A DNA stretch of 64,000 nucleotides from Candidatus Alloenteromonas pullistercoris (lineage in GTDB: Bacteria; Bacillota_I; Bacilli_A; RFN20; CAG-826), in NCBI GenBank assembly GCA_017694295.1, contig JADINA010000007.1, forward strand, positions 5,754 through 69,753. Reading direction: 5' to 3'. The position numbers and the translations under genes were made by a program. Numbering within the stretch: position 1 is the stretch's first letter; every line of letters begins with the position of its first letter. The notes under the pieces are model-generated. The model was not told where the DNA came from, searched no databases, and saw nothing but the letters and a program-made list of their open reading frames with translations. Positions 1-60,626 of this stretch are shown here, piece after piece.

Positions 1-1
1 T

Positions 2-1606
2 TCATGCCGCCCCTCCTTCAAATGACAGGAAAGCCCTCTCGGATTTGGCCTCGAATAGGATGACGGCGGGCACGAATAGGCATAGGCTAAGCCCAAGCAA
101 GAGGATATATGGGGAAATCCCGGAGAAGCCATCGAGGAGGGTGAGCAAAGCCGGGATGCCGGCGAAAAGGAACGGGAGGAGGAAGAAAAGCGATTTGAGG
201 TAGGCCATCTTGCTTTGCCTAAGCCCGGAAAGCCCGGTGAGGGCGGAAAATAGGTAAATCGAGGAAAGGAAGAAGGCGCCGGAAAGCAAAAGGAAGGGGA
301 AGGCGGGCCAAGAGACGTCGCCGAGGATGGAAAGGGAAAGAAGCGAGGCGGCATAGGCTAAAAAGCCCCAGAAAAGGGGAAGGGCGATTTTAGCCCGAAG
401 CTGGGCTTTGGGGGAGATGGGGAAGGTCTTAAGCAAGCTTAGGCGCCTCCCCTCCTTCTCTAGGCTTAGCCCCCCGGCCCCGTTTATGACGAAAAGGAAG
501 AGGAAGATGGTCGCCACCTGGATGAAGAAGCTCCAGCCCGGGAAGAGGTTGGAGATGAAGTTCAGGTTCCCGGTATGGAAGATGACCCCGATGGCGTGGA
601 CGACCGAGACGCTTAGGAAGGGGCTAGCCAAGACGAGGGAAAAGAAGGAAAGGACGCCGTCGCTATTGGAGGAGAGGACGAGGAACTCCTTCGAAAGAAG
701 AGCGTGCATCGGGGAGCGGAGGCCTTTGAAATAGCTTCTTTTCCTTTTTCCCTTGGGCTTCTCCCCCATTATGTAGAAGCGGAAAAAGAAGAAATACAGC
801 AGCGGCGAGAAGAAGGCGAAGCAGGCGATCGGGACGATGGCGCTTAAGCTGAAGAGGTAGAAGGGGTTGGCGATGTGGGCTAGTTTAAGAAACGGGGCGA
901 ACGGATAAAGGGCGTTCCCAATCGCGTTAAGCCTTCCGATGAACTCGGTGGTCAGCGAATAGGAAAGCGAGTTGCCCAAAACCAGATCGATGAAGAGGTT
1001 AAGCAAAAGGGAATACAAATACCCCAAGCCGATCATGAGCAAAAAGGAAAACACCAGCAAAACCCACATATTTTTCTGGATCGCCTTGGAAAGAAACCGA
1101 TATAGCGGCGCGAAAAGGAAGGAAAGGCCGAGGATCAGGAGGGGGAAGATGAAACAGAAAACCCCGCAATAAAGGTAATAAGGGAAATAGGCTTCCGCCA
1201 AGGCCCCATAGCAAATGGCGATGGGGAAGATTAGGAGAAGGACATAGGCGAAAGCGAGGCAATAGAAGAAGGCGGCTTTGGCGAGGAAGACATCGACTGG
1301 CCTAACCGGGACGGGCCCCAATATCCGCCTTTCCCGGGAGTCGAAGAAGGAGGAGGCGACCCGGGGCAAGATGGCAATCGCCCCGGCAAGGGAAAGCAGG
1401 CATAAGAGGATGGCGGTAAGGGAAAGGCTGGCCCCTTGATATGGGGAAAGGAGATTGAAGGCCTCGCGGTAAGCGAAGACCTCGATGCCGACGCATAGGG
1501 CGGCGGAAATCAAAACCAAGACGAGATAAAGCCATTTCGCGGTCCTGCTCCCTTTTGAGAAAATGGGCAAGGAGGAGAATTCGCGGTAAAACAAGACGGT
1601 GATCAT
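2..1606 (-). CDS. ABC-2-type exporter permease (multi-TM); C-terminus truncated by window edge
   Basis: 534-aa ORF of hydrophobic helices; 4-nt overlap (1603..1606) with the ABC ATPase gene upstream indicates translational coupling. Confidence 0.55.
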   Translation of the reverse strand: MITVLFYREFSSLPIFSKGSRTAKWLYLVLVLISAALCVGIEVFAYREAFNLLSPYQGASLSLTAILLCLLSLAGAIAILPRVASSFFDSRERRILGPVPVRPVDVFLAKAAFFYCLAFAYVLLLIFPIAICYGALAEAYFPYYLYCGVFCFIFPLLILGLSFLFAPLYRFLSKAIQKNMWVLLVFSFLLMIGLGYLYSLLLNLFIDLVLGNSLSYSLTTEFIGRLNAIGNALYPFAPFLKLAHIANPFYLFSLSAIVPIACFAFFSPLLYFFFFRFYIMGEKPKGKRKRSYFKGLRSPMHALLSKEFLVLSSNSDGVLSFFSLVLASPFLSVSVVHAIGVIFHTGNLNFISNLFPGWSFFIQVATIFLFLFVINGAGGLSLEKEGRRLSLLKTFPISPKAQLRAKIALPLFWGFLAYAASLLSLSILGDVSWPAFPFLLLSGAFFLSSIYLFSALTGLSGLRQSKMAYLKSLFFLLPFLFAGIPALLTLLDGFSGISPYILLLGLSLCLFVPAVILFEAKSERAFLSFEGGAA

Positions 1607-2370
1607 CTTGGCTTCTCCATCTTCGAAAGCGAAAGGAAATAGGGGGTTACCTCATAACGGAGGGAAGGGTCCTCCCGCAGGTCGAACACCCGGTTGATGA
1701 CCCCGTCGTAGATAATCGCGATGCGGTCGGCGATGGAGGATACCATCTCGATGTTATGCGAGGCGACGAAGACGGTCCGCCCATGCTCGGAGAACTCCTT
1801 CATCATGAGGGTGAGCTCGTGGCTGGTGACGGCGTCTAGCCCCACCGTCGGCTCGTCCATTACCCAAATATGGGGGTTATGGATAAGCGAGGCGATTAGG
1901 CCAAGCTTCTGCTGCATGCCATGGCTATATTCCTTTATCGGGCGGGAAAGGTCCTCGGGGCTTAGGTCAAGCCGCTTGCTTAGGTAATCGAGGTTCTTCT
2001 CGAAAACAGCGTCCTCGACTTTGTAGATCGATCCGATGAACTCAAGGTAGCGGAGGCCCGACATCTGATCATACGAAAGCGGCTCGGAGGGGACGTAGCC
2101 GATAATCTTTTTGGCGGCGATGGCGTCTTCGACGATCGAATGTCCCTCGACGGCTATCTCTCCCTCATCAAAGGTCTTTATGCCGATAAGGGAATCGATG
2201 GTCGTCGATTTGCCAGCCCCGTTGCTGCCGATAAAGGCAAAAAGCTCGCCTTCGCGGACCTCTAGGTCAAGGCCTTTTAGCACCTCATGGGATCCATAGG
2301 ATTTGCGGAGGCCTTTTATGGAGATGGAAACATTCCCTACCATTGGCTTACCTGCCCCGTTATCGTCCAT
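1603..2370 (-). CDS. ABC transporter ATP-binding protein
   Basis: Walker A GSNGAGKST, ABC signature YSHGMQQKLGL, Walker B IWVMDEPTVGLD; true start probably the internal M (MVGNVSI). Confidence 0.9.
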   Translation of the reverse strand: MDDNGAGKPMVGNVSISIKGLRKSYGSHEVLKGLDLEVREGELFAFIGSNGAGKSTTIDSLIGIKTFDEGEIAVEGHSIVEDAIAAKKIIGYVPSEPLSYDQMSGLRYLEFIGSIYKVEDAVFEKNLDYLSKRLDLSPEDLSRPIKEYSHGMQQKLGLIASLIHNPHIWVMDEPTVGLDAVTSHELTLMMKEFSEHGRTVFVASHNIEMVSSIADRIAIIYDGVINRVFDLREDPSLRYEVTPYFLSLSKMEKPR

Positions 2371-4991
2371 CCGGAACTTGAATTATAGCTAACCGACCTG
2401 CAAAGATGGTCATAGTACGTATACACTATGAAGCCGGTGCGAGTCTGAGAATTATTAAAACCGGCAAATTTAAACAATTTAATCGAGGAATCGGAAGCTC
2501 GATAGGGCATAAATCCCCCTTGGTAGAAGGCGTAAGTGGAGCCGTTATAAGTGGCAATATTATTTGAATATGTGACCTGGCGCCACTGCCCGGAAAGCGA
2601 ATTGGTTGTCCCTCCCGACTTGCCATTATAGGAATAATAAACATGCTCAGCCTTCCCGGAGGGGTCATCGTAAATAAAGGCGTAATAGACGTTGTTGCTG
2701 CCGTTTCTGGCATTGATGAGGCCGGTTTTGCGGTCGTAATAGGTGTTTGTTAGGCCGCTTCCGTTTTCCAAAGTCATCCAAATCTCGCCATTGGAAATAA
2801 GCGGGCAGCTATAAAGCGAGGCGACGTTTATCTGATGCATTTCTACGAGTGTACCTAGTTTGGCGGTAGAAGGCCCAGACATAGCCACCGATCCCCAAAG
2901 CTGGACGGAAGAGCCGTTTATATACGAGTCGAAGGCCGACTTGGATGGGAAGTTGATCTCCCCGCCCAAAACGTAGGGAACCGCGTTGCCGGAAGTGAAT
3001 TGGAGTTTTGCATAGCAATCGAAACGGGCCGGTATCTCGGCGTAATAATTCCAAAAACGGCTTCGACTACCCCATGTCCAGGTGCCGTGGCCTTCGTTGC
3101 TGTTGCCATAGGACTTCCTGGTGTCGTACCACCCTTTCCGCTCCTTGGAATCCGGATAAATATCAACGTCATCCGTTTCCTCTGTTATATGTATATTACT
3201 TGCATTCCCGATGTCCGAATTGTAATAGTTTTGGACCAATACCAACCCGGCGGCGCAATTAGTTTTTTGATCATCGGCATAATTCATATAAACGGCATTG
3301 ATGTAATCTCCGATAGACGCGGAACCATGGTCAAAATAAATCGTAGAGGCCGCATCTGCATAAAGATAGCACCCTGGCATGAAGGCGTACTCCTGATGTA
3401 GGCGGATTTTCGAACCGTACGAATAGAAATCGTAATACGGCGGGATCCATTTTTGATAACGGTAGGACGTAATAGATATATCAATACCCAAACCAAAATC
3501 TATATGCATATTGACGGCGAGGGCACATATTTCGATTTCGGCATTGACGAAATAGTATTTTATCTTTTGATAGGTGACGTCCTTATAGGCGCGGTCGTTG
3601 GTCAAAGCTGTGTAATTGGTCCCATGGGCTTTAACGATGGTGTCATAAAGTTCCTTGTTATATTCCATCTTTCGGATGATGGAACCGCTGGAGAGGCGAA
3701 TCCAAGCCGAGGAAGATGGGGACCCGATAATATAAAGATCTGTATAAACGCTTCCTTGGCTTTTGCCAAAGGAGACATATAGCTTCCCATAGAAATTGCA
3801 CCCGGCCTCAAAGACGATTTCGCAATCGAGGTAGGGGCAGCGGAACATCTGCATCCAATCCATGCCCCCGGCGTAAATCTCGGGAATCGAATTCTCGCGC
3901 CACATATCCTCAAAGACGAAAGTCGAATACAAAGTCGCCCCGCTTTTGAGGATGAGGCGGCCATCCCTTTCAGAAGAGGAATCGGTTATCGACCCAAAAG
4001 CATCGATCATCGAACCAGATTCGAGGATGAGGTCATATCCGTTCAGATCCAATTCGGAATAGGGCCCGCAGATGAATCCTTGCGCATTCAGCTGCGTCCA
4101 TTGCAGGTTCATCGAAGTGTCCTCAACGTCTTGCCTTGCAAATCCGGTTAAAGCGCCCAAAGTGAAATTTCCCGACAGAATAACGTCGTTTTGCAGGGTA
4201 AACCGGGCAAAGCAATACTCGCTTTGGTTATTGGCGGCTATCGACCCCCCATTGCTTATATCGGTCCTTTTGCTTAAATCGACTGGCTTGTAGTAATGGT
4301 TGTAAGCCGTATTCGTATTGGCTCCATTCGGATAATCCGCCGGGTGCGTCTCCAAGCCAATTGAGCTTTTGGAATTGGCGAAAGGCCCGTTGGGGACGGA
4401 GGATCCGTTGCGGACCAAATAAGGTTGGGTGCCGTTTTGGTTGCTATGGGCATACCATCTGTCCGAGTTTGTATCCTCCTTATACTGGGCTTGCGTGCCA
4501 GAACTGCTGTTGTAGCAATTGACCAATGGGACCGAGAAATCGATGGCTATGTCGAGCCCGCCGTTGGCATTGCCGATATTGCCGGATCCGCTGGTGTTTA
4601 TCGACGTATTGACCTGCTCCGGGTTTCCCTTTGTATAGGTTTCCAAATACCAATTGTCTAGGGTGACCGACTGAGGGCTTTCAGTCCTAAACGTCAGCTT
4701 CGCCTCCCCAACCGTCACGTGTTTATGGAGGTATTCGCCGGAATCGGATTTCCAAGTATAGAAGGCATTGTTGTATTTGACTCCCGGGGCATCCCCAAGC
4801 GACAAAACGTCGCCGGGGTTGAAATACTCAGTCGTGGTAACCCCGTTGGGGTCGATAAAATCGACTTGGGTCAATCCTTCCTCGCTAAGGTCGGCCTCGC
4901 CGTTTTTCATATCGAGCATCCCGAAAGAGGGGACGGCTAGGCAAAGAAAGGAAACCGCGCCGATTATAAAGGAAGCCGATGCTTTCCTCAT
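2337..4991 (-). CDS. Large secreted Tyr/Asn/Ser/Gly-rich surface protein (884 aa), function unknown
   Basis: N-terminal signal peptide (FIIGAVSFLCLAVPSFG); aromatic/Asn-rich beta-type composition, no recognisable catalytic motif; noticeably lower GC than neighbours. Confidence 0.6.
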   Translation of the reverse strand: MRKASASFIIGAVSFLCLAVPSFGMLDMKNGEADLSEEGLTQVDFIDPNGVTTTEYFNPGDVLSLGDAPGVKYNNAFYTWKSDSGEYLHKHVTVGEAKLTFRTESPQSVTLDNWYLETYTKGNPEQVNTSINTSGSGNIGNANGGLDIAIDFSVPLVNCYNSSSGTQAQYKEDTNSDRWYAHSNQNGTQPYLVRNGSSVPNGPFANSKSSIGLETHPADYPNGANTNTAYNHYYKPVDLSKRTDISNGGSIAANNQSEYCFARFTLQNDVILSGNFTLGALTGFARQDVEDTSMNLQWTQLNAQGFICGPYSELDLNGYDLILESGSMIDAFGSITDSSSERDGRLILKSGATLYSTFVFEDMWRENSIPEIYAGGMDWMQMFRCPYLDCEIVFEAGCNFYGKLYVSFGKSQGSVYTDLYIIGSPSSSAWIRLSSGSIIRKMEYNKELYDTIVKAHGTNYTALTNDRAYKDVTYQKIKYYFVNAEIEICALAVNMHIDFGLGIDISITSYRYQKWIPPYYDFYSYGSKIRLHQEYAFMPGCYLYADAASTIYFDHGSASIGDYINAVYMNYADDQKTNCAAGLVLVQNYYNSDIGNASNIHITEETDDVDIYPDSKERKGWYDTRKSYGNSNEGHGTWTWGSRSRFWNYYAEIPARFDCYAKLQFTSGNAVPYVLGGEINFPSKSAFDSYINGSSVQLWGSVAMSGPSTAKLGTLVEMHQINVASLYSCPLISNGEIWMTLENGSGLTNTYYDRKTGLINARNGSNNVYYAFIYDDPSGKAEHVYYSYNGKSGGTTNSLSGQWRQVTYSNNIATYNGSTYAFYQGGFMPYRASDSSIKLFKFAGFNNSQTRTGFIVYTYYDHLCRSVSYNSSSGWTITGQVSQW

Positions 4992-5623
4992 ATCGCCTCC
5001 TTAAACGAAATGCCAAAGGACGAAAATGACAATCCCGGGTTGGTCGGAGAGCTGACCGGAACCTCGATGGAGCAAGTGAAGTTAAAGGCGTTGATGGTGT
5101 TATTGACCCCCGATTCGCCATATAGGCCCTCGATGCTATCGTGTTCGAAATCGGATGCAAGGTTTTGATCCAAGACGTAATAGGAAATCGCGGCCTGCCC
5201 ATTTGCCGAGGACCGCGAATACGGATTGAAATAGCGGCTCCCTTCGTAATCGGCCAAAAGATAGCAATGGGCGGCATACGCGTCGAAGGTGCCCGAATAG
5301 GCGAAAAGGAAATCGACGGCTTCGAATTCCTTCACCCCGGAGGAGCTATACCAATATTTGCTTATCGATCCGCGGGGGATGGTAAGCGAGGCCGAGGCGA
5401 CGAGGGTATAGCCCCGCGCATCCCTGACTATCCTTTGCGTCGCCGAGTTGATGACGATTATCTCCGGGTCGAAATCGCGGTTTATCGCGACTTCGCCTAG
5501 CCTAACCTGCTCTTTGGCCTCGAAGGCGCCGCTGAGGGAAAGGGCGCCATAGGTCGCGACCGCGCTTGTAAGCGGGAGGCAAAGGGCGAAAGCCATTATG
5601 GAAAGGCGGTTCCCCCACTTCAT
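4988..5623 (-). CDS. Secreted TasA/camelysin-like protein (paralog 2)
   Basis: Signal peptide ending AVATYGALSLSGAFEA, resembling the SipW-dependent TasA N-terminus (GGT[FWY]A.F.D) and the N-terminus of ORF 10534..11181; 4-nt overlaps with both neighbouring genes. Confidence 0.45.
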   Translation of the reverse strand: MKWGNRLSIMAFALCLPLTSAVATYGALSLSGAFEAKEQVRLGEVAINRDFDPEIIVINSATQRIVRDARGYTLVASASLTIPRGSISKYWYSSSGVKEFEAVDFLFAYSGTFDAYAAHCYLLADYEGSRYFNPYSRSSANGQAAISYYVLDQNLASDFEHDSIEGLYGESGVNNTINAFNFTCSIEVPVSSPTNPGLSFSSFGISFKEAI

Positions 5624-6723
5624 GAAGCGTCCTCCGCAAAGCAGGCGTAGGCGGTGAAGTCCTTGGTCACCGGCGTCAAATCAGTGATCTTGGTCGCCGA
5701 AAAGGATTCCTCGCCATAGGGGTTGGTATACCATCCGAGGAAAGTCGACCCCTCCTTCTCGGCCCGAGGCAAAACCGGAAGCGGGCTTCCGGCCTTAACC
5801 CGCTGGGTTGGGCTGAAGGAGGCGGGCACGACGATGCGGCCCCCGTTGGTCTCGGCGTCGAATTTGACGGTGTAATACACCGCTTCGCCCATGGCGAACT
5901 GCAAAACCCAGGCGCCGTCATCATAACGCCAAACGGCCCCGTTGAGGGAATCGAAGTAGAAATCGCCCTCCTTGGCCTCGCGGATGTTGTAGGGATCGCC
6001 GGAATTGGTGAACCACTTGGTCCCGTCCTCAACTTGGGGAAGCGGGAAGGTGAGGGTCTGCGGCTCATCGGTTTGGGTGAAATGGATTATGAGGTAGTAG
6101 TTTTCCTCATCGGAGAAGCTTTCGATGTAGGCGATGCCATTGCCGTCTTTCCCGCTTTGGGAGGGAAGGCGGATCTCGGTGTTGGGGACGGATTCGTCGG
6201 TGTATTCGATGGTGATGAGGACATCCCCGTTTTCCAGGGTTTCCTGCGACACCGAGGCAATTCCGTTGCCGTCTTTCCCCTTTGGCAAATCGAAGGTATG
6301 GTCCTCCCCGTCGTTGGTCGAGATGGTGACGGTCGTCATCCCGGTTTCGGGGTCGTAGGCGCTTTCGATGTCCTCGATCGAGGTGGCGTTTGGGATACTC
6401 CAGACCGAGGGCTCAAGCGAGGCGTCGGTGTAGGTCATGGTGATGATGAGGCTGCTCCCGTCCTCGCTTAGAACCGAATCGACCGAAGCGATGCCGGTCC
6501 CCATCGGGCCCTGCTCGCCCGTCTCCCCTTGGGGGACGTAGAAGACGACGGGGGGTATGTCCTCGTCGGTGAAGGTGATGGTGACCTTGGTTGAGCCATC
6601 TGGCTGCTCTTCGGCCAAAACCGATTCGATGAAAAGCGATTCCTCGCTGCCAAGGAGCATGTTGCAGGAGGATAGGGCGAAAAGCCCGGCGGCCCCCAAA
6701 AGAAGTTTCCTAAGCAGCTTCAT
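5620..6723 (-). CDS. Lipoprotein with collagen-like G-x-x triplet repeats and C-terminal Listeria-Bacteroides (Flg_new) repeat
   Basis: Start moved to in-frame ATG at 6723 (MKLLRKLLLGAAGLFALSSC lipobox) with AAAGGAGA RBS; three ~40-aa repeats (GETGEQGPMGTGIASV / GKDGNGIASV / GKDGNGIAYI); C-terminal YTVKFDAETNGG...GSTFLGWYTNPYGEE...FTAYACF. Confidence 0.6.
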   Translation of the reverse strand: MKLLRKLLLGAAGLFALSSCNMLLGSEESLFIESVLAEEQPDGSTKVTITFTDEDIPPVVFYVPQGETGEQGPMGTGIASVDSVLSEDGSSLIITMTYTDASLEPSVWSIPNATSIEDIESAYDPETGMTTVTISTNDGEDHTFDLPKGKDGNGIASVSQETLENGDVLITIEYTDESVPNTEIRLPSQSGKDGNGIAYIESFSDEENYYLIIHFTQTDEPQTLTFPLPQVEDGTKWFTNSGDPYNIREAKEGDFYFDSLNGAVWRYDDGAWVLQFAMGEAVYYTVKFDAETNGGRIVVPASFSPTQRVKAGSPLPVLPRAEKEGSTFLGWYTNPYGEESFSATKITDLTPVTKDFTAYACFAEDAS

Positions 6724-7831
6724 AGCCATTCTCCTTTCCCCTGAACGGGAGGTCGTAAACCCAAAGGAACCGCTCGCCGTTGCGGTCGTATTCGCCAAAG
6801 AGGGCACCGCATTCGTGACAGCGCCCACCTTCGCGGAGCCCGCCGCAGATCGGGCAATAACGCGGATAGGCGGGGAGAGTAAGGAAAAGCAACTTCAGGG
6901 GCAACGAGGAGTCGATGGCCCCAAAAAGCGAGGCGCTTGCCTTTTTCCCGTCTTCGGAAAGCAATTCGTAACGCGGGTAGAAGAAAGAGGGCCGAGGCAA
7001 AAGGAAATACGACTTAGAAGAGGAATCGAAGGCGTTTTCCCCCTTAACGAGGAGCCCCTCGCCTTTTTTCTCGATGACGATGGAGAAATCCGAATAGGCA
7101 AAGCGGATCCCCGATTTCGTCTTGCTTGGCCGCCTGCCGGAGGAGAAATCGCCGACGATCCTATTCAAATCGGCTTCGGGGTTATAGGAACGGCGGGAGG
7201 AGGCATAAGCCTTATAAAGCGTCCCATAGAGGGGATCGTAGGCCAAGGCGTTGGTCAGATGGACGTCTTGCTCCCTTATCGGCTCTACCGAAAGGAAGAA
7301 GCCGGTTTGCAGCAACCCGGAGGCTTCGGCTCTAAGCGAAAGCAGCTCCTCGAGCATGGAAAGCTTTTCCCTTTGCTTGCCCCGATAGGCGTCTTCGGCG
7401 TAATCGATGATCGGGAGGGCGTTACCGAATTTGGAATAGTCAAGCCCCTCCCCAAGTATCGGGAGGAGCGAGGAATCGCGCCTAAAGGCGGAAGAGGCGG
7501 CGTTAAGCTCGGCGAAAAGCTCGGTTAGGATGAATTTGGCGAAGCGGTTCTCGTAGGTCGAGAAATCGTCCTCGACCTCCGGGCAAAGCACCTCTTTGGG
7601 GGTAAGCCTCCCGTTTAGGTAGCCGAAATGCTTGCTCTTCCTCGCCGTCAAAGCGAAAAGTCGCCTTGAGAAGGAGGAGGCTTGGCTAAGCTTGCGGAGG
7701 GTCTCCTCCTGCCTTAAGCCCTTCCTGGAGAAGCGGACGATGTTCTCAAGGCAATCCAAAATGACGCGGCATGAGGAAGGCGAGGGGGCGAGGGCCCGTT
7801 CGCGGGTATAGGAGGCGAAAGAGAGGCTCAT
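6710..7831 (-). CDS. Cytoplasmic protein with C-terminal zinc ribbon (CPICG...CHECG); candidate partner/effector of the upstream AAA ATPase
   Basis: 373-aa ORF, 4-nt overlap with the ATPase gene; CxxC...CxxC ribbon; a D...E.K-like stretch (SDFSIVIEKK) could be a PD-(D/E)xK nuclease motif but is unverified. Confidence 0.5.
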   Translation of the reverse strand: MSLSFASYTRERALAPSPSSCRVILDCLENIVRFSRKGLRQEETLRKLSQASSFSRRLFALTARKSKHFGYLNGRLTPKEVLCPEVEDDFSTYENRFAKFILTELFAELNAASSAFRRDSSLLPILGEGLDYSKFGNALPIIDYAEDAYRGKQREKLSMLEELLSLRAEASGLLQTGFFLSVEPIREQDVHLTNALAYDPLYGTLYKAYASSRRSYNPEADLNRIVGDFSSGRRPSKTKSGIRFAYSDFSIVIEKKGEGLLVKGENAFDSSSKSYFLLPRPSFFYPRYELLSEDGKKASASLFGAIDSSLPLKLLFLTLPAYPRYCPICGGLREGGRCHECGALFGEYDRNGERFLWVYDLPFRGKENGYEAA

Positions 7832-9609
7832 CCAAGCCTCCTTATCTCGTAATCGATGGAGGAAAGGCTCCTCTTGAAGGAGTCACCATAGGTCTTCTTT
7901 ATATAGCTGGAAAGCTCATGGAGCCCGCCCCGATAGGAGGCGTCGACCCTTCCTTTGGCCTTGCGGAGGACCTTGAAGGCGAATAGGTAATCGAGGGCCC
8001 CCTCCTTCTCGCCGGTCATGGCGGCGTAGCAGGGGGTAAGGTCCTTGGCTTGGTTGAGGAAGCGGTTGCCGGTTTTCACGTCAAGCAGTTCCCCGGCTTT
8101 CCTAAGCAAGTCGGAAAGCTTCTTCATCTCGGCGGAGGAAAGGGAAAGCTTCCTGTCCTTCCTCGCCTCAAGGGCCAATGAATTGAGCTCTTGGTAGGAA
8201 AGGGGCGTTGGCTTGGCCTTGGTTTCGAATTCGATGGGCTCATGGAATTCGTCGAAGTCGAGAACGACCGCCCTATCGATGACCTTGTCGGTGATGGCGA
8301 AGGTCGAGTCGTCGGTGTTGGCGGTCCCGACGAAGCGGGTATTCGGGGTTAAGGCGAGATCGCCCTCGCCTAGGTGGGCCGGAGCCTCGCCGGGGATGTT
8401 ATAAAGGTGGATCTTCCTTTCGCCCTCGGGGAACTCAAGCACCGAGAGGAAGTCGGCGAAATAGTACTCGATGCGGGAGATGTTCATCTCGTCGAGGACC
8501 ATGATGTTGAGGTGGCTTAGCCGGTACGTCGACTCGTAAAGCCGCTTAAGGAACTCGGTCTCGGAGTAAACCCCGGTGAAGTCGTTGTAATAGCCCAGGA
8601 TATCATCGCGGTCCTTATAGGTCATCTGGACGGATTCGAAATAGGCCGTCTCGCCGATGAATTTGGCGAAGTAGCGCGGCAAGCTCGATTTGCCAGTGCC
8701 CGAAACGCCCTCGAGGATGGTGATCGGGGCGGTGAGCAAGGAGGATGCGAACATCGCGAGGTCCTCAAGCGAATAGTAAAGCGAGCAGCTGGTGGCTAGG
8801 TAGTTTTGCAGCTCGGCTACGATCCTCTTTAGGCTAAGGTCTTGCTTGGGCAAGGCGAGGCTTTGCTCGCCAAGGACGAAGCGCGAATCGATTTTGCTTA
8901 GCTCGGGGAACACCCTTTCCCGGTCATAGGATACCGGGGCGGACGCGCCCCCGGAAACAAGGGCCCCGCCGATGGCAACGGTTCCACCCTCCCCCTTCTT
9001 CGAATCGAAGGAGGCGGTGACGTCGTCCTCGCTTGGATCCTTTTTCTCCTCCGTTTCCTCGCCCTTTGGGGCGGCGGCCCCGGAGGCGGGGAGGCTGGGC
9101 CTAGAGGCGAAGGGGAGGGAGAGGATAAGCAAATAGATGGCGAAGACGATGGCGTAGATGCAGGCGAAAGCCAAAAGGCTGATAAGCAGCGACTGCCCGA
9201 CGAATTGGAGGTGGAGGGCAACCCCCTCGGCCCCGTTGGGGATGGAGAAAAGCATGCCGACGCCGATGAAGACGATGAACCCGGCCACCCCGATTAGGAT
9301 CATGTAAAGGAGCAACCCGGAGTCGCGGAGCGTCTTCCCGTCCTCCTTCACCTTGTTGATGACGGCGAAAAGGGCGATCGACCCGGCGATGAGGTAAAGT
9401 CCGAGGAAAAGGAGGATGATGTATCCCCCGATGGCCGGCTCGATCTTCGGGAAGCCAAACAGCTCCCCGATGGAAGCGATGATGTTGTTCTTGTTGAAGA
9501 CGACGTAGCTCGCGTCGAGCCCGCCGGCGACGAAGAAGCTTAGCAAAACGAAGAAAATAACCGAGGCCACGATGGCCTTTTGCCTTGGCGAGAAACGCAA
9601 TATCCTCAT
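7828..9609 (-). CDS. Membrane-anchored McrB/AAA_5-family ATPase (GTPase-like)
   Basis: Four N-terminal TM helices, acidic linker, then Walker A GVSGTGKSS, Walker B MVLDEMN, and NTRFVGTANTDD...VIDRAVVLDF typical of the McrB/dynein-related AAA_5 family. Confidence 0.7.
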   Translation of the reverse strand: MRILRFSPRQKAIVASVIFFVLLSFFVAGGLDASYVVFNKNNIIASIGELFGFPKIEPAIGGYIILLFLGLYLIAGSIALFAVINKVKEDGKTLRDSGLLLYMILIGVAGFIVFIGVGMLFSIPNGAEGVALHLQFVGQSLLISLLAFACIYAIVFAIYLLILSLPFASRPSLPASGAAAPKGEETEEKKDPSEDDVTASFDSKKGEGGTVAIGGALVSGGASAPVSYDRERVFPELSKIDSRFVLGEQSLALPKQDLSLKRIVAELQNYLATSCSLYYSLEDLAMFASSLLTAPITILEGVSGTGKSSLPRYFAKFIGETAYFESVQMTYKDRDDILGYYNDFTGVYSETEFLKRLYESTYRLSHLNIMVLDEMNISRIEYYFADFLSVLEFPEGERKIHLYNIPGEAPAHLGEGDLALTPNTRFVGTANTDDSTFAITDKVIDRAVVLDFDEFHEPIEFETKAKPTPLSYQELNSLALEARKDRKLSLSSAEMKKLSDLLRKAGELLDVKTGNRFLNQAKDLTPCYAAMTGEKEGALDYLFAFKVLRKAKGRVDASYRGGLHELSSYIKKTYGDSFKRSLSSIDYEIRRLG

Positions 9610-9622
9610 TTTGCTTAGCTCC

Positions 9623-10513
9623 TTACTTGCGATAGCTTATGTCTATTTTATCGGACTTGACCTTTTTGTCGACGGTCCCGACGTAGGATGAATCGAATCT
9701 GATGGTGCCTTCCGGGCAGCTGTAGATGACTTCTTTCGCCCCTTTGGCGAAAAGCCCGTCATAGGCTTTCAGCCTTTCCTCCTTCCGCTTGTCGGAGAGG
9801 CCGAAATATATCTCGGCCGCGATGATGCAATAGGCCAGCGAGGACATCCCGAGTATCCCGTAGTCGTCTTGGAGGTAGATGGTTATCGAGCCAAGCACCG
9901 GTATCCTTATCCCGGCGTAGCGGCCGTTGACCATCTCCAGGGTGACGCGGACGTTGTCCGGGGTCGAGTTGGCGTCGCCTTGGGTGAGGAGAGAGCCGTC
10001 GTCGTAGAAGCCGACGACCCGGTGGATGACGTTTATGCCCTCGGGATGGGCGTAGCTCACGATGTCGTAAAGCTTGATGGCCTCTAGGGAATCGACCCTT
10101 TCGATGACGACGATGTCGTCGACCTGCAGCCTTTCATCGTGCCCTTGCAGCTCCTGCGCCCTTTCCGGGGCGAGAGTGGACATCGACGGGGTCAAGACGA
10201 CTCCCAGCGAATAAGGGATCCCCAAGCCCGGCATTGCGCGCGTGAAGATCAAAACCGCGCACACGCCAAGCACCAAGAAGAAGAAGCAGTTGCCCAAAAT
10301 GGCTGCCGCTTTGCGGGCCCCGCGGGCCTTTTTCGAGCGCGAGCAGCTCACCACCTTCTCCTCAAGTATCTCGAAATCGAGCTTCCCCTCGCCCGTTTCC
10401 TTCTTGTCGACGCGAAGCATCCAAATCAAGAAGGCGGTGAGGGCGAGGAGAAGGACGATGACCGATACCAGGACGATGGTGAAGACGATTGAAAGGCAAA
10501 CCGGGAAAGCCAT
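9623..10513 (-). CDS. sipW: SipW-type (ER/archaeal-type) signal peptidase I with extra N-terminal TM and C-terminal extension
   Basis: Box B LTPSMSTL (Ser nucleophile), box C VDDIVVIE, box D NVIHRVVG (His rather than Lys), box E TQGDANSTPD; 296 aa versus ~190 aa for B. subtilis SipW. Confidence 0.7.
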   Translation of the reverse strand: MAFPVCLSIVFTIVLVSVIVLLLALTAFLIWMLRVDKKETGEGKLDFEILEEKVVSCSRSKKARGARKAAAILGNCFFFLVLGVCAVLIFTRAMPGLGIPYSLGVVLTPSMSTLAPERAQELQGHDERLQVDDIVVIERVDSLEAIKLYDIVSYAHPEGINVIHRVVGFYDDGSLLTQGDANSTPDNVRVTLEMVNGRYAGIRIPVLGSITIYLQDDYGILGMSSLAYCIIAAEIYFGLSDKRKEERLKAYDGLFAKGAKEVIYSCPEGTIRFDSSYVGTVDKKVKSDKIDISYRK

Positions 10514-10533
10514 CCCCTATATTATATAAGGAA

Positions 10534-11181
10534 TTAGGCGCCGGCTCCCGAGGCTAGCTGAACCGTGACGGTGCAGGTGATGGTCGTGGAGTTGATGGCG
10601 GTTTGGAAAGCTTCCATCGCATCCCAGGCGCCGTTCCCATCGGGATAGGTGGTGTTGACCCACTTGAGGAAGCCGCCTTGATATTTCGAAGCCCACTCAA
10701 GGGTGATGGGGAGGGTGCAGGTCTTGACGGTGTCGACGCCCTCGCCCTCGCCTTCTTGCGCCCAAGCGGGATCAAGGCTTTCTTTCGCGACGGTGATGGT
10801 TTTGTTAGAAAGAGTCAGATAGGTCTCGTCGCTGATCTTGACGGTGACGGTGACGCTGGCCCAGGATTCGGGATTTCCGGTGACGGAAAGGCCAAGGGAG
10901 AACGTGCGGTCGTTTTTCGCGTCGCCATCGACCTGGCCAATATTGTTGTCGGTCAGGTCCTCGTATCCATCGACATCAAGGACACCTTCTTTGACGGAGG
11001 CGGCGAGGTTAACGACGTTGTTCTGGATGACGACGTCGCTGATGTTGATGCCGTCATTCACGTCTTGCGTCTTGTTCCCGCCGGAGAGGGTGAGGGCGGC
11101 GTAGGTGCCGCCGATCGTCGCAACCGCGCCTAGGACTAGTGCGCTGGTGACGACGAGCTTTATTTTGCTTGTTTTGGTCAT
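10534..11181 (-). CDS. Secreted TasA/camelysin-like protein (paralog 1)
   Basis: Start re-assigned to ATG at 11181 (MTKTSKIKLVVTSALVLGAVATIGGTYAALTLSGG) with GGAGG RBS 8 nt upstream; N-terminus matches the TasA/camelysin signal (GGTFAYFSD-like); lies directly upstream of the SipW-like gene as in tapA-sipW-tasA. Confidence 0.55.
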   Translation of the reverse strand: MTKTSKIKLVVTSALVLGAVATIGGTYAALTLSGGNKTQDVNDGINISDVVIQNNVVNLAASVKEGVLDVDGYEDLTDNNIGQVDGDAKNDRTFSLGLSVTGNPESWASVTVTVKISDETYLTLSNKTITVAKESLDPAWAQEGEGEGVDTVKTCTLPITLEWASKYQGGFLKWVNTTYPDGNGAWDAMEAFQTAINSTTITCTVTVQLASGAGA

Positions 11182-11289
11182 CAAAGTGACCTCCTTGTGA
11201 TTGAAAGATAAGGAGCGATGGAAAGACCTTACAAGCAAAAATTCGAAAAAGTTTGCAATTTGTTTTTTCATTGACGTCCCTTTTAACAT

Positions 11290-11498
11290 ACTTTTGCGGG
11301 TAATTGTGTTGCTTTGCGCCTTTTTCCGACTGCCTCTAAGACGGTTTACAAAGTTGATAGTTTCATTCTAATAAAGTTAGTTTTCGAACTTTTTCCTTAT
11401 TTTGTTTTGAAAATTCGAGGATTTTTCGCAATTTATATATAAGAAAATATGCATGTGGATATTCCAAAACGAGGAAAAAAGACATAAAATACGTATAT
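11290..11498. promoter_or_regulatory. AT-rich divergent intergenic region; probable promoters for the minus-strand TasA/SipW operon and the plus-strand Fic-like gene
   Basis: ~210 bp of markedly AT-rich sequence between divergently oriented genes; contains TTGACG, TTGAAA and TATATAT elements; exact -35/-10 not assigned. Confidence 0.35.
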
Positions 11499-12458
11499 AT
11501 GGATAGGATTTCTTCGCCCTACCGGGCCTCATTCTCCACATCCAACGCGGTGGTCATGGCCTTGACCTCGCTTGCCTTCAAAGCCGGGCGCCTTTCCTCT
11601 TTGGCTTATAAACAAGACATTGACGAAGCCTCCTTGGAGGAATCCAAGGCGTATTTGAGGTCGGTCGGCGTGAAGCTCACGCCCTCCCAGGCCCGCGGCC
11701 TAGGGTTAGGGGAAAACGTGAAATCCGCCCCGATCGCCAAGCCGACGACAGAGCTTTTCAAAGCCGTCAACAGGCAAGGGCCATTGGGGAAGGAGTTCGT
11801 CGAACGCTTTGCCAAAATTCTTTGGGGGGAAGACGTGCCGGTTAGGCTATCCCGCCGGGTCAAGGGCTTCGATTACCCGATCCCGCCCCACGCCAAGGTG
11901 GACGGCCTCCTTGACAAGACCTTTGCCTTCCTCGCCCAGGCCGATGGCAAGGTAAGCCCCCTACTTCTTTCCGGGCTTTGCCTATACATGGTGATGGCGA
12001 TCATGCCCTTTAGCGAGCATACCCTTCTTCTCGCGATACTTTTCGCCAAGGGTGAGCTCATCAGCTTCCGGCGGGAGTTCGTCGGAGTCAATCTGACCAA
12101 GCACCTTTTGGAAAACGAACAGACCCTATCCGAGGCTTACGCGAAAGCAAACGAGAAAAGCGACATGGCCCCCTACCTCATCGCCTATATGGGCGTGGTC
12201 GAGGAGGCGATCGAGGAGGCGATCCGCCGAGGTGTGAGCAAACGGGGCGGTCTCACCCCGATGGCCAAACGGATGGTCGAGTTAATGGAGGATGGCCGCT
12301 ACTACAGCGCCGCCGAGCTGCTTGGCATTTTGGGGTTGAAGTCGAGGCTCGGTTTGCAGAAGAATTACCTTCAGCCGGCCTTAAAGGCCCGGCTCATCGA
12401 GATGAGCAACCCGCTCTCCCCCACCGACAGGAACCAGCGTTACCGCCTCAAGAAATAG
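11499..12458 (+). CDS. Fic/DOC-family-like protein with degenerate active-site motif and C-terminal wHTH
   Basis: Fic-like helical core with MPFSEHTLLLA in place of canonical HPFx(D/E)GNGR; C-terminal SAAELLGILGLKSR...RYRLKK typical of Fic-associated winged helix. Confidence 0.45.
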   Translation: MDRISSPYRASFSTSNAVVMALTSLAFKAGRLSSLAYKQDIDEASLEESKAYLRSVGVKLTPSQARGLGLGENVKSAPIAKPTTELFKAVNRQGPLGKEFVERFAKILWGEDVPVRLSRRVKGFDYPIPPHAKVDGLLDKTFAFLAQADGKVSPLLLSGLCLYMVMAIMPFSEHTLLLAILFAKGELISFRREFVGVNLTKHLLENEQTLSEAYAKANEKSDMAPYLIAYMGVVEEAIEEAIRRGVSKRGGLTPMAKRMVELMEDGRYYSAAELLGILGLKSRLGLQKNYLQPALKARLIEMSNPLSPTDRNQRYRLKK

Positions 12459-12462
12459 AAAA

Positions 12463-12891
12463 ATGGTCTTCGCATCGATATTCTTATTCGCCTTTGTCGC
12501 CTTCATCATCGCCTCCTGCGTCTGTTTTGCGAAAAAAAAGGAAACGGAATGGACTCTTTTGTCCTTGGTCGCGGTCTTCGCCATCGTCTCCGGGATATGC
12601 GCCATCGTCTTTTTTGCTAAAGAACCCAAGCAAATGGACCAGACCGCGAGGAACTGGGCCGGGGCTTCATATTTCCTCTGCGCCCTTTTCCTTTGCGCCA
12701 ACTCTTTTTCCAAGCGCCTCCCCAAATACGGGAAGCCGATCGGCATCGCCTCGCTTTCCCTTTTCCTTATATTCGGATGCGTTTTGCTTGGCCTTCTTTT
12801 CTTTTATGGCCGGGATTGGATCGACAACGAGACCGTCATCTCCTCCTCCAAGCCCTCCTCCCTATTGGCCATTTTGCAAATTGCCTATTGA
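12463..12891 (+). CDS. Small 4-TM membrane protein, unknown function
   Basis: 142-aa hydrophobic ORF immediately downstream of the Fic-like gene. Confidence 0.5.
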   Translation: MVFASIFLFAFVAFIIASCVCFAKKKETEWTLLSLVAVFAIVSGICAIVFFAKEPKQMDQTARNWAGASYFLCALFLCANSFSKRLPKYGKPIGIASLSLFLIFGCVLLGLLFFYGRDWIDNETVISSSKPSSLLAILQIAY

Positions 12892-23639: not shown

Positions 23640-24944
23640 TTGTTGATTATGGAAAGCAAACCAAAGGCGAAAAACAGGCGGGCCAAGCAGCTGCCACGCG
23701 CGATTGAGCTATTTGCCGGAGTAGGCGGCTTTCGGGTCGGCTTAAACCGCATTCGCTCCCTTGAGAACACGCTAAGAGAGAGAGAGAGAGAGAGATTTAA
23801 TTTCGTCTTCGCCAACCAATTTGAGCCGTCGACCAAAAGGCAAGACGCCTTCATCTGCTACCAAACCCATTTCCCCGACGGCGAGAACTCAAACCTCGAC
23901 ATCGCCAAAGTCGACAAAGCGTCAATCCCCGATTTCGACTTGCTGACGGCCGGCTTCCCCTGCCAAGACTATTCGGTCGCCAGAAGCCTGGCCAACGAGA
24001 AAGGAATCGAGGGGAAGAAAGGCGTCCTTTGGTGGGAGATAAACGATATCCTGCTGACCAAGAAGCCGAAGTTCGCCCTTTTGGAAAACGTCGACCGCCT
24101 CATTAAGGCCCCCTCTAAGCAAAGGGGCCGCGATTTCGGAATTATCCTCCATTGCCTAAACCAAGCCGGATACGGGGTTTTGTATAAGGTGATCAACGCC
24201 GCCGATTACGGTTTCCCTCAAAGGAGGCGTCGCGTTTACATATTCGCCTTCCGCCTCGACACCGCCTATGGGAAAAAGATGTCCTCGATTCCGGCTAAGC
24301 AAGCCATCGAGGAAAAGGGGATATTCGGCAAGAAGTTCCCAATAAAGCCCGAAGGGAAACTCAAGGAAGCTGACTTGACTGCCTATGGTGGTCTATTGGC
24401 TTTGCAAGAGGGGTTCGCGTTTCGCTTCGAGGATGCGGGGATGATGGCAAATGGCCATATATATACGGAAAAGACGACGCCGATTCAGGAAAAGCCGATT
24501 GCCCTTGGGGAGATTCTCGAAGACCTCGTTGATGACCAAAGTCTTTTCCTAAACGAAAGGCAAATCAGAAAATTCGCTTACCTTAAAGGGGCAAAGAAAA
24601 TAAGGCGAAAGGCGAAAAACGGTCATGAATACGTCTATTCGGAAGGGCCGATCGCCAACCCGGACTACCTCGACCGCCCATCGCGGACGATGCTGACAAG
24701 CGAAGGGACCATAAACCGCTCAACCCACGTCGTCCTCGATAAGCAGACGGGAAGGCCCCGCTTGCTTAGCCCGCGGGAATGCGAACGGCTCAACACCTTC
24801 CCCGACGACTGGACCGCGACCATGCCGAAAAATCGCCGCTACTTCATGATGGGCAACGCTTTGGTATGCGGGCTTATAGAGAGAATCGGCGATGAGATAG
24901 AGCTCATTTTCAAGGAGGAGGGGAAAGATGGAACGGGGGATTGA
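23640..24944 (+). CDS. DNA (cytosine-5)-methyltransferase (type II R-M M subunit)
   Basis: Motif I FAGVGGF, motif IV GFPCQDYS, motif VI ENV, motif X-like MGNALV; contains an in-frame (AG)10 tract. Confidence 0.85.
   Translation: MLIMESKPKAKNRRAKQLPRAIELFAGVGGFRVGLNRIRSLENTLRERERERFNFVFANQFEPSTKRQDAFICYQTHFPDGENSNLDIAKVDKASIPDFDLLTAGFPCQDYSVARSLANEKGIEGKKGVLWWEINDILLTKKPKFALLENVDRLIKAPSKQRGRDFGIILHCLNQAGYGVLYKVINAADYGFPQRRRRVYIFAFRLDTAYGKKMSSIPAKQAIEEKGIFGKKFPIKPEGKLKEADLTAYGGLLALQEGFAFRFEDAGMMANGHIYTEKTTPIQEKPIALGEILEDLVDDQSLFLNERQIRKFAYLKGAKKIRRKAKNGHEYVYSEGPIANPDYLDRPSRTMLTSEGTINRSTHVVLDKQTGRPRLLSPRECERLNTFPDDWTATMPKNRRYFMMGNALVCGLIERIGDEIELIFKEEGKDGTGD
23775..23795. repeat. (AG)10A dinucleotide simple-sequence repeat inside the C5-methyltransferase ORF
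   Basis: agagagagagagagagagaga read in frame as RERERER between MTase motifs I and IV. Confidence 0.9.
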
Positions 24945-25602
24945 GGAGATACTCGCTTACCTCAACGGTTTTGCCGGGAAAAGCATCGAAGAGCTCTTTT
25001 CCTACGTCAATCTGGCCACAAAGGCAAAAAACAGGAACCGAATGCTGGCCGAAAAGCTTTTGGAAGCCTATTTGGGACATGGATTTTCGGTTTCAAATGC
25101 CCCATGGCAGTTAAAAACGATAAGGCTAGACAAAAACAACCGGCCCAAGGAATCTTGCGCCTTCCCGACCTTCCGCTGCGCCGATATTGCGAATAACGAC
25201 TTCGCCCATTCGGAAATCAGGAAAACCCTCGATGGGGATTTCCTTTTCTTCGCCACCAAAGATAGCGGGCGCGAGGTATTCGTCGGCGCTTTCATCTACC
25301 GCCTCCCGAAAGCCTACTTGGACGGGGAGGTAAAGGAGGTTTACGAGAAAACCCGGAAGGTCATTCGAAGCGGGGACGTAGTCAAATGCCGAAAGGACAA
25401 CCGCCTCATCCTCAACTTCCCGCGCGAAAGCGAGCAGCGGATCGCCCATGTCCGCCCCCATGGCCGCAACCAATTCGACGTCGACCATTTGCCGGTAAGG
25501 GACATCAAAACCGGCATAACCGACATACCAAAGCATTGCTTTTGGCTTAACAAAGGCTTCATCGAGGAAATCGCAAAAGCCAATCTAAATTTGGAGGCAT
25601 GA
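24928..25602 (+). CDS. MutH/Sau3AI-family endonuclease-like protein (probable cognate REase of the C5 MTase)
   Basis: 224 aa (MutH is 229 aa); C-terminal RIAHVRPHGRNQFD...CFWLNKGFIEEIA resembles MutH LQIRPKAANAKA...GFYLKKNFTSALL; central QLKT where MutH has ELKT; 17-nt overlap with the MTase gene. Confidence 0.55.
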   Translation: MERGIEEILAYLNGFAGKSIEELFSYVNLATKAKNRNRMLAEKLLEAYLGHGFSVSNAPWQLKTIRLDKNNRPKESCAFPTFRCADIANNDFAHSEIRKTLDGDFLFFATKDSGREVFVGAFIYRLPKAYLDGEVKEVYEKTRKVIRSGDVVKCRKDNRLILNFPRESEQRIAHVRPHGRNQFDVDHLPVRDIKTGITDIPKHCFWLNKGFIEEIAKANLNLEA

Positions 25603-25608
25603 TATACA

Positions 25609-29413: not shown

Positions 29414-29495
29414 GCATCGCCTCTGCAAAACGGGACAGGCCAGGTTGTCAACCGATAAGAGGGGTTTTATAATTATTCCAAGGAGGTTTCCGAAA

Positions 29496-60458: not shown

Positions 60459-60482
60459 CGCTTTCCTTTCCGGTTCAACTTG

Positions 60483-60626
60483 TGAAACCGCTTTCATAAG
60501 TATTGTATTGAGGGTCAAAGGAAAGGTCAAAACTATTAAGAAAGCGGTTTCTCAAATCGATTCGCCAAAAAAGCGAAACCCCGATGCCATCGCTAGGAAA
60601 GAAAAGGGAAACAAAGCGAAACCGGA
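60483..60626. promoter_or_regulatory. Cluster of GAAACCG(C/G)-type repeats upstream of the GH81 gene, including a cre-like site TGAAACCGCTTTCA
   Basis: GAAACCGCTTTC (60484..60495) and its exact reverse complement GAAAGCGGTTTC (60540..60551) 44 nt apart. Further GCGAAACC copies at ~60573 and ~60616. First site fits CcpA cre consensus TGNAANCGNWNNCW and lies ~25 nt upstream of the ATG. Confidence 0.35.

Follow-up and report, generated by a model that had tools for sequence, protein, structure and literature searches.

A nine-gene operon of Candidatus Alloenteromonas pullistercoris encodes a SipW-like signal peptidase and three predicted substrates unrelated in detectable sequence to TasA

Do two small secreted proteins encoded on either side of a SipW-like signal peptidase gene belong to the TasA/camelysin family of matrix fibers, or do they share with TasA only a manner of being matured? 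The question is raised by a 64,000-nucleotide stretch of the Candidatus Alloenteromonas pullistercoris genome (GenBank assembly GCA_017694295.1, contig JADINA010000007.1, positions 5,754 to 69,753; hereafter the window, whose own numbering is used throughout). In the initial annotation, two of its proteins, here called A (215 amino acids [aa]) and B (211 aa), were described as sharing an N-terminal motif and were proposed to be TasA/camelysin-like subunits, one major and one minor, processed by one dedicated peptidase. Here we report that the motif is also carried by a third protein of the same operon, the 884-aa giant protein, and that the functional analogy with TasA, dedicated SipW-type processing, stands while membership in the TasA family fails. 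On balance, we lean toward the reading that the three secreted proteins are substrates of the SipW-type peptidase of their operon and are joined in a surface polymer or complex of a new family.

A common N-terminal motif in three secreted proteins

Both reading frames and their N termini, MTKTSKIKLVVTSALVLGAVATIGGTYAALTLSGGN for A and MKWGNRLSIMAFALCLPLTSAVATYGALSLSGAFEA for B, proved to be as first annotated, on the minus strand. The start of A at 11181 has an AAGGAGG ribosome-binding site 7 nucleotides (nt) upstream and is backed by homologs of 215 aa; one database entry, from a "Firmicutes bacterium" metagenome-assembled genome (MAG), is 100% identical. Following a Sec-type n- and h-region, A reads ...GGTYA↓ALTLSGG and B reads ...VATYG↓ALSLSG (the arrow marks the predicted cut), and TY(A/G)AL(T/S)LSG lies equally far from both N termini, at residues 26 to 34 in A and 24 to 32 in B. 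The signal peptide of A has three Lys in its n-region, an h-region of 17 aa, T at P3, and A at P1. These two carriers had been recognized; the third, the giant protein (...PSFG↓MLDM), had been missed. The elements map as follows.

11098..11181, minus strand: predicted signal peptide of A, residues 1 to 28, predicted cut A28↓A29
11086..11106, minus strand: motif TYA↓ALTL of A
5546..5623, minus strand: predicted signal peptide of B, residues 1 to 26, predicted cut G26↓A27
5534..5554, minus strand: motif TYG↓ALSL of B
4920..4991, minus strand: predicted signal peptide of the giant protein, residues 1 to 24, predicted cut G24↓M25
4908..4928, minus strand: motif SFG↓MLDM of the giant protein

The motif is the most conserved part of both the A and B families and is functionally constrained. 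Alignment of 73 A-family sequences, whose members are 39 to 95% identical overall to the window protein, revealed 17 invariant and 9 nearly invariant (≥90%) positions among the first 35 residues. Within the seven genomes of the window's clade, the amino acid identity of A was 73% over the first 35 codons versus 21% over the next 35. Different codons encode 42% of the identical residues in the conserved 5' end of gene A, so the constraint acts on the protein rather than on RNA; an RNA-level cause was rejected on this ground and for want of any Rfam match in the window. Orthologs of B are 26 to 33% identical overall, with C15, L16, P17, T24, Y25, G26, and A27 invariant, and they are few: only 11 homologous clusters were found among 5.8 billion proteins, even by profile search. 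B and the giant protein evolve very fast, and the N termini of 21 giant-protein orthologs align in register.

Profile comparison (hhalign) of 17 B-position proteins with the A family gave a probability of 96.7% and an E value of 4e-10 over the first 50 columns only, and the N-terminal profile of the giant protein matched the A family with a probability of 94% (E 1e-7). As a control, lipoprotein N termini of the same operons reached only E 2e-4 over 10 columns. Homology between A and B is not detectable past approximately residue 50. Full-length homology was rejected, since matches of the A hidden Markov model (HMM) to B-position proteins span the first 39 to 69 residues (one reaches 129) and the hhalign match spans 50 columns. 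What A, B, and the giant protein have in common is the N-terminal ∼50 residues only. When the six frames of the window were screened, only three of 395 Met-started candidates (≥100 aa) fit an n-region followed by a hydrophobic stretch and [STAG][FY][GAS]x[LI], namely, A, B, and the giant protein. Because the pattern had been drawn up from these same sequences, the count speaks to specificity, not discovery. The N-terminal 45 residues of the three proteins gave no NCBIfam match at E ≤ 10, in a search where short models may fall to HMMER filters. In NCBIfam, TIGR04088 is the model of the SipW-cognate signal peptide class.

The composition of the motif is in keeping with a cleavage site. N termini of A, B-position, and giant proteins were compared for 76 proteins from 27 genomes. 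All 76 have a small residue at P3 (A, G, T, S, or C) and at P1 (A, G, or S). At P2, 69 of them have F, Y, or L, usually F or Y, and at P3' and P4', I, V, or L predominates. This composition obeys the (-3, -1) rule for type I signal peptidases, with the addition of a bulky P2. At P2', the 56 proteins from other clades uniformly have an aromatic residue (Y, W, or F), whereas the 20 from the seven genomes of the window's clade have L or I in each of the three protein classes. Cross-class motif identity amounts to 3.04 of 7 positions within a genome versus 1.84 of 7 between genomes, a value reached in 0 of 5,000 permutations. This concerted change argues for a common partner of the three protein classes, which could be the S' pockets of the peptidase, a common acceptor site, or both.

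The same register is found in TasA. The mature chain of TasA begins at A28 (PDB 8AUR, to which our TasA query was checked as identical), and the A-family profile places GGTYA↓AL onto GGTWA↓AF of TasA in identical register, at an E value (0.008) that is not significant as homology. The likeness to the TasA signal region remarked on in the initial annotation is borne out at the cut itself, TYA↓AL predicted here and TWA↓AF proven in TasA. According to PMC10269814, the Phe of TasA at P2' is the feature with which Escherichia coli LepB copes poorly, and SipW is the dedicated enzyme. Taken together, the sequence statistics give good support to cleavage of the three proteins by the peptidase of their operon, which we regard as probable.

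A separate observation concerns the whole signal peptide of A (window 11086..11181), which is near-invariant in the 73-sequence alignment down to its n-region, MTKTSK.KL. The sequence may serve a targeting step of its own, or the peptide may have a role once it is released.

A conserved cassette with a SipW-like peptidase and an McrBC-like pair

The three motif genes belong to an operon of nine genes (2..11181, minus strand), all of which overlap or lie ≤20 nt apart. From first to last, the genes are as follows.

10534..11181, minus strand: protein A, 215 aa, first gene of the operon; predicted secreted beta-sandwich
9623..10513, minus strand: SipW-like signal peptidase, 296 aa, 20 nt after A
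7828..9609, minus strand: membrane-anchored McrB-like AAA+ GTPase, 593 aa (Walker A GVSGTGKS from 8709; Walker B VLDEMN at 8482-8499; NxD signature GTANTDDST at 8302-8328; all minus strand)
6710..7831, minus strand: McrC-like partner, 373 aa, with DUF2357 and a C-terminal zinc ribbon
5620..6729, minus strand: lipoprotein with repeated modules and lipobox LSSC, a possible membrane anchor
4988..5623, minus strand: protein B, 211 aa, fast-evolving predicted secreted beta-sandwich
2337..4991, minus strand: giant protein, 884 aa, third motif carrier, candidate adhesin or tip component
1603..2370, minus strand: ATP-binding subunit of an ATP-binding cassette (ABC) transporter (PF00005 at 2.4e-23)
2..1606, minus strand: open reading frame, in conserved position, for a 534-aa polytopic membrane protein that is presumably the permease partner of the ABC subunit

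The peptidase gene lies between those of A and B on the same strand, as originally annotated; the McrB-like/McrC-like pair that also lies between the motif genes had gone unnoticed. No promoter or terminator in 1..12000 scored above shuffled sequences. The lipoprotein, whose N terminus is MAMKLLRKLLLGAAGLFALSSC, matches PF09479 (Listeria-Bacteroides repeat, Flg_new) at 3.9e-10 near its C terminus, and its gene is kept across cassette loci; the ABC ATP-binding gene was found in the cassette in every locus compared.

We assign the gene at 9623..10513 to the SipW-type (S26B-like, endoplasmic reticulum [ER]/archaeal-type) signal peptidases, an assignment that its sequence motifs support. Its NCBIfam matches, to TIGR02228 and to the SipW model NF046067, span residues 128 to 228 only; it has no Pfam match, and comparison with PDB sequences gave nothing useful. 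Ser110 (10184-10186), His164 (10022-10024), and Asp180 (9974-9976) occupy the catalytic positions, and no fewer than 90% of 41 orthologs retain the SM, HR, T.GD, and D boxes. These Ser, His, and Asp boxes align with those of Bacillus subtilis SipW, relative to which the peptidase has an extra N-terminal transmembrane segment and a C-terminal tail of ∼60 aa.

The McrB-like GTPase has approximately four N-terminal transmembrane segments and a charged linker, matches AAA_5 (Pfam) at 1.1e-3, and shows the N-x-D-D signature that is present in 88 of 88 homologs; its profile finds nothing in the PDB at E ≤ 0.01. Its stop codon is overlapped by 4 nt by the gene of the McrC-like protein, which matches PF09823 (DUF2357, the McrC N-terminal domain) at 3e-7, above the cutoff, and ends in a CxxC...CxxC zinc ribbon with a weak DZR_2 match. 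HMMs detected no nuclease domain in the McrC-like protein, though a highly diverged one may escape them. Like the canonical McrBC system of type IV restriction, the pair combines an AAA_5/McrB-type NTPase bearing Walker A and B motifs with a DUF2357 partner whose gene is adjacent and overlapping. It differs in having a transmembrane domain in place of the DNA reader, NxD rather than NxxD, no detected PD-(D/E)xK nuclease, and a place in a secretion-type operon.

The NxD branch of McrB-like GTPases, with a deletion within NxxD that is usually followed by D or E, was defined by Bell et al. (PMC11090510), who also named, in one sentence published in 2024, the CoCoPALM association of an McrB-like GTPase and McrC homolog with signal-peptidase-family proteins. 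As described there, an FtsB-like single transmembrane segment and coiled-coil are fused to the GTPase and coiled-coils occur on both partners; that paper gives no substrates, motif, or gene list for CoCoPALM, and our literature search found no follow-up. The cassette resembles CoCoPALM in an NxD GTPase paired with a DUF2357 McrC homolog and in the signal-peptidase-family association, and in sequence it fits two of the stated features, the NxD motif and the association with a peptidase. The GTPase here shows about four transmembrane segments and a charged linker, and the McrC-like protein has a zinc ribbon at its C terminus, features that may set the cassette apart from CoCoPALM as described.

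The cassette is conserved as a unit. Its nine-gene order, with overlapping genes, is kept from 95% down to ∼25% identity of A and at different chromosomal sites. Relatives in which A is 40 to 54% identical have the same nine genes in the same order at the same site, beside Fic/infC-rpmI-rplT/thiI/ezrA, and a low-GC organism with an A protein ∼25 to 30% identical has the same nine genes in order at a different site. A scan with the GTPase as the query, using one genome per species, yielded 120 relatives, for which 80 loci were kept. These come from uncultured gut MAGs of Bacilli, Mollicutes, and Acholeplasmatales, the more distant ones from Clostridia/Christensenellaceae; named hosts are Candidatus Alloenteromonas, Onthovivens, Enteromonas, Caccosoma, Scatosoma, and Alectryobacillus. 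The peptidase gene stands beside the GTPase/McrC pair in 33 loci and downstream of McrC in 7 more, in three gene orders. Where the order is rearranged (several A paralogs, or the giant gene moved beside the peptidase gene), the genes for the motif proteins, peptidase, and GTPase/McrC pair are still found together, as in L024, L032, and loci of the L085 type, where the peptidase lies downstream of McrC.

Loci of this last type (L085:7608-19651, L075, L077, L078, L080, L083, and L088) have the order secreted proteins, GTPase, long McrC-like protein, and SipW-like peptidase. L085 encodes a 374-aa protein with a TasA-like ...TSTYA↓WFAV site and, directly downstream, two EAL-domain (cyclic di-GMP phosphodiesterase) membrane proteins, neighbors whose predicted domains hint at cyclic di-GMP control. 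Some scan loci carry unexpected labels: L076, L080, L081, L083, and L086 are "cleanbin" MAGs labeled Escherichia coli, Bacteroides uniformis, Hallerella, Sodaliphilus, and Faecalibacterium prausnitzii. A Bacillota-type GTPase/McrC/peptidase module under these five labels probably reflects mis-binned or mislabeled records.

Other observations concern the surroundings and the parts of the cassette. Divergent from the operon, at 11499..12891 on the plus strand, are genes for a protein with a Fic-like_C domain (319 aa) and a small protein with four transmembrane segments (142 aa), a pair whose synteny with the cassette holds in every close relative (L001-L006). In their mature N-terminal parts, the lipoprotein and the giant protein, compared along with their orthologs, have ∼40 columns in common (hhalign probability 94.7%, E 6e-8), with the pattern ...VTF.D..G....Y...G..LSL.DAP, which may be a common domain or a compositional effect. 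Finally, in related cassettes the permease gene is followed by one for a membrane protein of ∼650 to 830 aa (L009:19842-21788, L014:19148-21592, and ∼18 loci alike), a position that in the window would fall past the left edge. The N terminus of this protein, MKKKAFLFLLLIPF.IAILAFVT(S/A)T(Y/F)VIR.VE.DI, contains ...AFVTxTYVI, similar to the substrate motif (hhalign versus giant-protein N termini, probability 85%, E 6e-6), and in the window's clade it retains Tyr (FTTSDYLIK) where the three motif proteins have changed to Leu. This membrane protein may be a fourth substrate, or else a partner that stays uncleaved.

Predicted folds, proposed assembly, and alternatives

Neither A nor B matched any model in Pfam, NCBIfam, or PADLOC scans, nor did the giant protein. 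None of the 87 homologs of A found by database search is annotated, and the same is true of the 59 representatives to which an exhaustive HMM search brings the family. These representatives are ∼200 to 300 aa long, two long multirepeat matches excepted, with N termini such as ...SSALAAYIITGG, ...TTTFATFIITGG, or ...GFAAWVI and a C-terminal motif WGxxF...NPxxYY. On this sequence evidence, A is best regarded as the founding member of an unannotated family. The AlphaFold2 (AF2) model of A has a mean predicted local distance difference test (pLDDT) score of 74 and is a beta-sandwich with two C-terminal helices; block-mean pLDDT is mostly 83 to 94 in the core (residues 55 to 212) and below 50 for residues 11 to 54. 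The predicted cut is thus followed by 25 residues without confident structure and then by the confident beta-sandwich. The model of B (mean pLDDT 72) is a beta-sandwich too.

We infer cleavage, polymerization by strand donation, and whatever role the GTPase pair may have, in the following succession. A, B, and the giant protein, each with a Lys/Arg n-region and an h-region of ∼17 residues, would be exported by Sec. The cassette peptidase would then cut after A28 in A (TYA↓AL), G26 in B (TYG↓AL), and G24 in the giant protein (SFG↓ML). Sites of this kind are poor targets for ordinary bacterial signal peptidases, as the case of TasA and SipW has shown, which would explain the need for a dedicated ER/archaeal-type peptidase. 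In each of the three proteins, cleavage would bare the same kind of short, hydrophobic strand at the new N terminus (x-L/Y-x-L/I, in many cases with Gly-Gly next). TasA filaments form by N-terminal strand insertion, and TapA donates its N terminus (PMC10151520); by analogy, the three proteins may join through their shared strand into one polymer or complex at the cell surface. In such an assembly, A would serve as major subunit, with minor, adaptor, or tip roles left to B and the giant protein; anchoring or help with export would fall to the lipoprotein and to the membrane proteins of ABC type. The GTPase anchored in the membrane, together with the McrC-like protein that has no nuclease, might act as a motor or regulator of assembly at the cytoplasmic face.

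Donor-strand pili, both chaperone-usher pili and archaeal bundling or TasA-like pili, offer a parallel: beta-sandwich subunits whose N-terminal extension has no structure in the model of the monomer (here, that of A), and one N-terminal segment shared by several types of subunit. Unlike chaperone-usher systems, the cassette has no chaperone, usher, or outer membrane to work with, strand donation here would follow only the analogy, and Foldseek gives no convincing similarity of A to pilins.

Several observations weigh against the proposal. Cleavage and the fiber are predictions from sequence, and the register of the motif across the 76 proteins was set by eye. The peptidase scores below the curated cutoffs of both its models (3.4e-11 and 43.3 bits against a cutoff of 51.85 for TIGR02228; 1.2e-10 and 41.2 bits against 190 for NF046067) and has an insertion after the Ser box relative to SipW. 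Near-invariance of the entire signal peptide of A, n-region included, exceeds what recognition of a cleavage site explains. The best Foldseek match of A is the pilus backbone RrgB, at an E value of 0.017 and a template modeling score of 0.2, and neither model is convincingly TasA-like or pilin-like. The GTPase core matches the PADLOC candidate phage defense model PDC-M26A at 8.4e-36, and the GTPase/McrC pair stands without a detectable peptidase in at least 22 adequately flanked loci, from which it follows that the link between GTPase and secretion could be secondary.

An alternative that makes use of some of these points is that the N termini stay uncleaved, as signal-anchors that dock the three proteins, via the juxtamembrane motif, onto a membrane complex of GTPase, peptidase-like protein, and ABC permease; the peptidase homolog would then be a scaffold or cut something else. 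An N terminus of 35 residues that is near-invariant in protein down to its n-region is unusual for a disposable signal peptide, and the low model scores of the peptidase also fit this reading. Yet P3 and P1 are small in every one of the 76 proteins, as fits a cleavage site, the catalytic Ser, His, and Asp positions are conserved in the 41 orthologs, and the register is identical to that of the proven TasA site. We consider this alternative unlikely.

Slightly less likely still is that the cassette is a phage defense or conflict system around an McrBC-type module, with the secreted proteins as surface-remodeling or exclusion effectors. The PDC-M26A match, the very fast evolution of B and the giant protein, the occurrence of the GTPase/McrC pair alone in many Clostridia loci, and the composition of the NxD McrB branch, otherwise made up of predicted defense systems (PMC11090510), all point that way. 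On the other side, the McrC-like protein has no detectable nuclease, a transmembrane domain replaces the DNA reader of McrB, the other cassette genes have no PADLOC match, and in the window's clade the cassette occupies a fixed chromosomal site (infC-rpmI-rplT/thiI/ezrA), not a variable island.

That A and B are instead divergent members of the TasA/camelysin family (Peptidase_M73), the major and minor subunits of a TasA-type biofilm fiber, was the proposal of the initial annotation. A SipW-like peptidase adjoining A, a signal peptide in the same register as that of TasA, and beta-sandwich models of both proteins are what it would predict. The family evidence is uniformly negative. Scored against the Pfam Peptidase_M73/TasA HMM, neither A nor B matched at E ≤ 1, and 48 family members matched neither Peptidase_M73/TasA nor an NCBIfam TasA or SipW-substrate model. 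The A-family profile, run against PDB sequences in which TasA is present as 8AUR and 5OF1, gave chance matches only (E ∼1), and hhalign of the A family with TasA aligned 24 signal-peptide columns alone, with a probability of 5%. Structure prediction did not recover the TasA jelly-roll either: a Foldseek search of the PDB with the AF2 models of A and B gave 0 matches at E ≤ 0.001, only generic beta-sandwich matches, and no TasA entry (5OF1, 8AUR) in the top 50 for either model, a comparison bounded by the mean pLDDT of the models (74 and 72) and made by search rather than by pairwise superposition. With no family match and no shared fold found, the outcome that the initial annotation itself had named as refuting, membership in the TasA family is very improbable, and only the signal peptide aligns with TasA. 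What survives of two subunits served by one peptidase is the shared, dedicated SipW-type processing; that they are major and minor subunits of one fold is unproven, A and B having no detectable homology past approximately residue 50.

The comparison with Bacillus remains instructive at the level of organization. Next to its presumed substrates, the operon encodes a dedicated ER/archaeal-type peptidase, an arrangement also seen in the loci for SipW-dependent biofilm fibers, tapA-sipW-tasA of B. subtilis and sipW-calY of B. cereus. The presumed substrates are several, have a small-aromatic-small↓x-hydrophobic/aromatic site (TWA↓AF in TasA, TYA↓AL here), and include small secreted proteins that are predicted to be beta-sandwiches. 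Unlike the Bacillus substrates, A and B have no detectable sequence or fold relationship to TasA/camelysin or TapA, and in place of the aromatic P2' of TasA there is Leu or Ile in the window's clade, with aromatic residues in sister clades. The operon also differs in its nine genes, which include the McrB-like GTPase, the McrC-like protein, a lipoprotein, an 884-aa candidate substrate, and ABC components, all absent from the Bacillus operons, and in its hosts, which are uncultured gut Bacilli with reduced genomes.

A trivial explanation, that three ordinary Sec signal peptides of shared ancestry are cut by a housekeeping signal peptidase beside which the cassette enzyme is a coincidence, draws on the similar composition of signal peptides and on the weak hhalign scores of the lipoprotein controls, and we dismiss it as the least probable of all, given that P2' switches from aromatic to aliphatic together in all three proteins of one clade, that motifs are more alike within than between genomes, that the motif is invariant where mature parts are 21 to 33% identical or less, and that the peptidase is coinherited with its substrates through several rearrangements.

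Further readings of the motif proteins were rejected. For B and the giant protein as lipoproteins, the h-region Cys is not conserved (it is absent from B of L001) and the -1 residue is atypical. For sortase-assembled pilins, the C termini (...VQLASGAGA, ...GISFKEAI, and ...TGQVSQW) lack an LPXTG-type signal, and Pfam and NCBIfam scans found no sortase in the cassette. For type IV pilins or pseudopilins, the hydrophobic segment precedes the motif, G↓FxxxE is absent, and no prepilin peptidase was found in the cassette.

Significance of the cassette and other features of the window

The principle of a SipW-type peptidase with cognate substrates was already known, as was, from a single sentence in 2024, the link between an McrB-like GTPase and a signal peptidase. 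We found no description of substrate families without detectable relation to TasA, of a motif common to three substrates and its concerted evolution, or of the cassette of nine genes in gut Bacilli with reduced genomes. Such uncultured, "Mollicutes-like" Bacilli are frequent inhabitants of the guts of animals and humans; related orders are reported to be without sortases, and some lineages without peptidoglycan (PMC10868615). A conserved and apparently core SipW-dependent surface cassette would, if true, give a first way into the question of how these bacteria attach or form a matrix, and the principle of a dedicated archaeal-type peptidase plus strand-donating subunits would reach past the TasA fold. 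The concerted P2' switch provides a natural experiment on the substrate specificity of SipW-type enzymes.

The cassette also supplies concrete candidate substrates and a cleavage motif for the link between NxD McrB-like GTPases and signal peptidases (CoCoPALM), which makes a role of an McrBC-type motor outside restriction directly testable. The fullest version of our proposal, which we hold only tentatively and think doubtful as a whole, is a new class of surface filament in reduced-genome gut Bacilli, built of subunits of a non-TasA, non-pilin fold that are matured by a SipW-type peptidase and joined through their N-terminal strands, with a nuclease-less McrBC-type GTPase that drives or gates assembly. 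If true, a restriction-type motor would have been recruited for building a surface structure.

Elsewhere in the window, 23640..30734 (plus strand) is a probable defense island, with a GC content of ∼0.51 versus ∼0.57 in its flanks. It encodes a C-5 cytosine methylase (23640..24944), two proteins without a Pfam match, an 890-aa fusion of a PLD-nuclease and an SNF2 helicase (26741..29413), and a double-zinc-ribbon protein (29325..30734). A glycogen synthesis cluster at 46604..50288 (minus strand) contains two NTP_transferase glgC/glgD-like genes and a starch synthase gene, and 57366..60530 (minus strand) encodes a 1,054-aa GH81 glucanase with a bacterial surface Ig-like domain.

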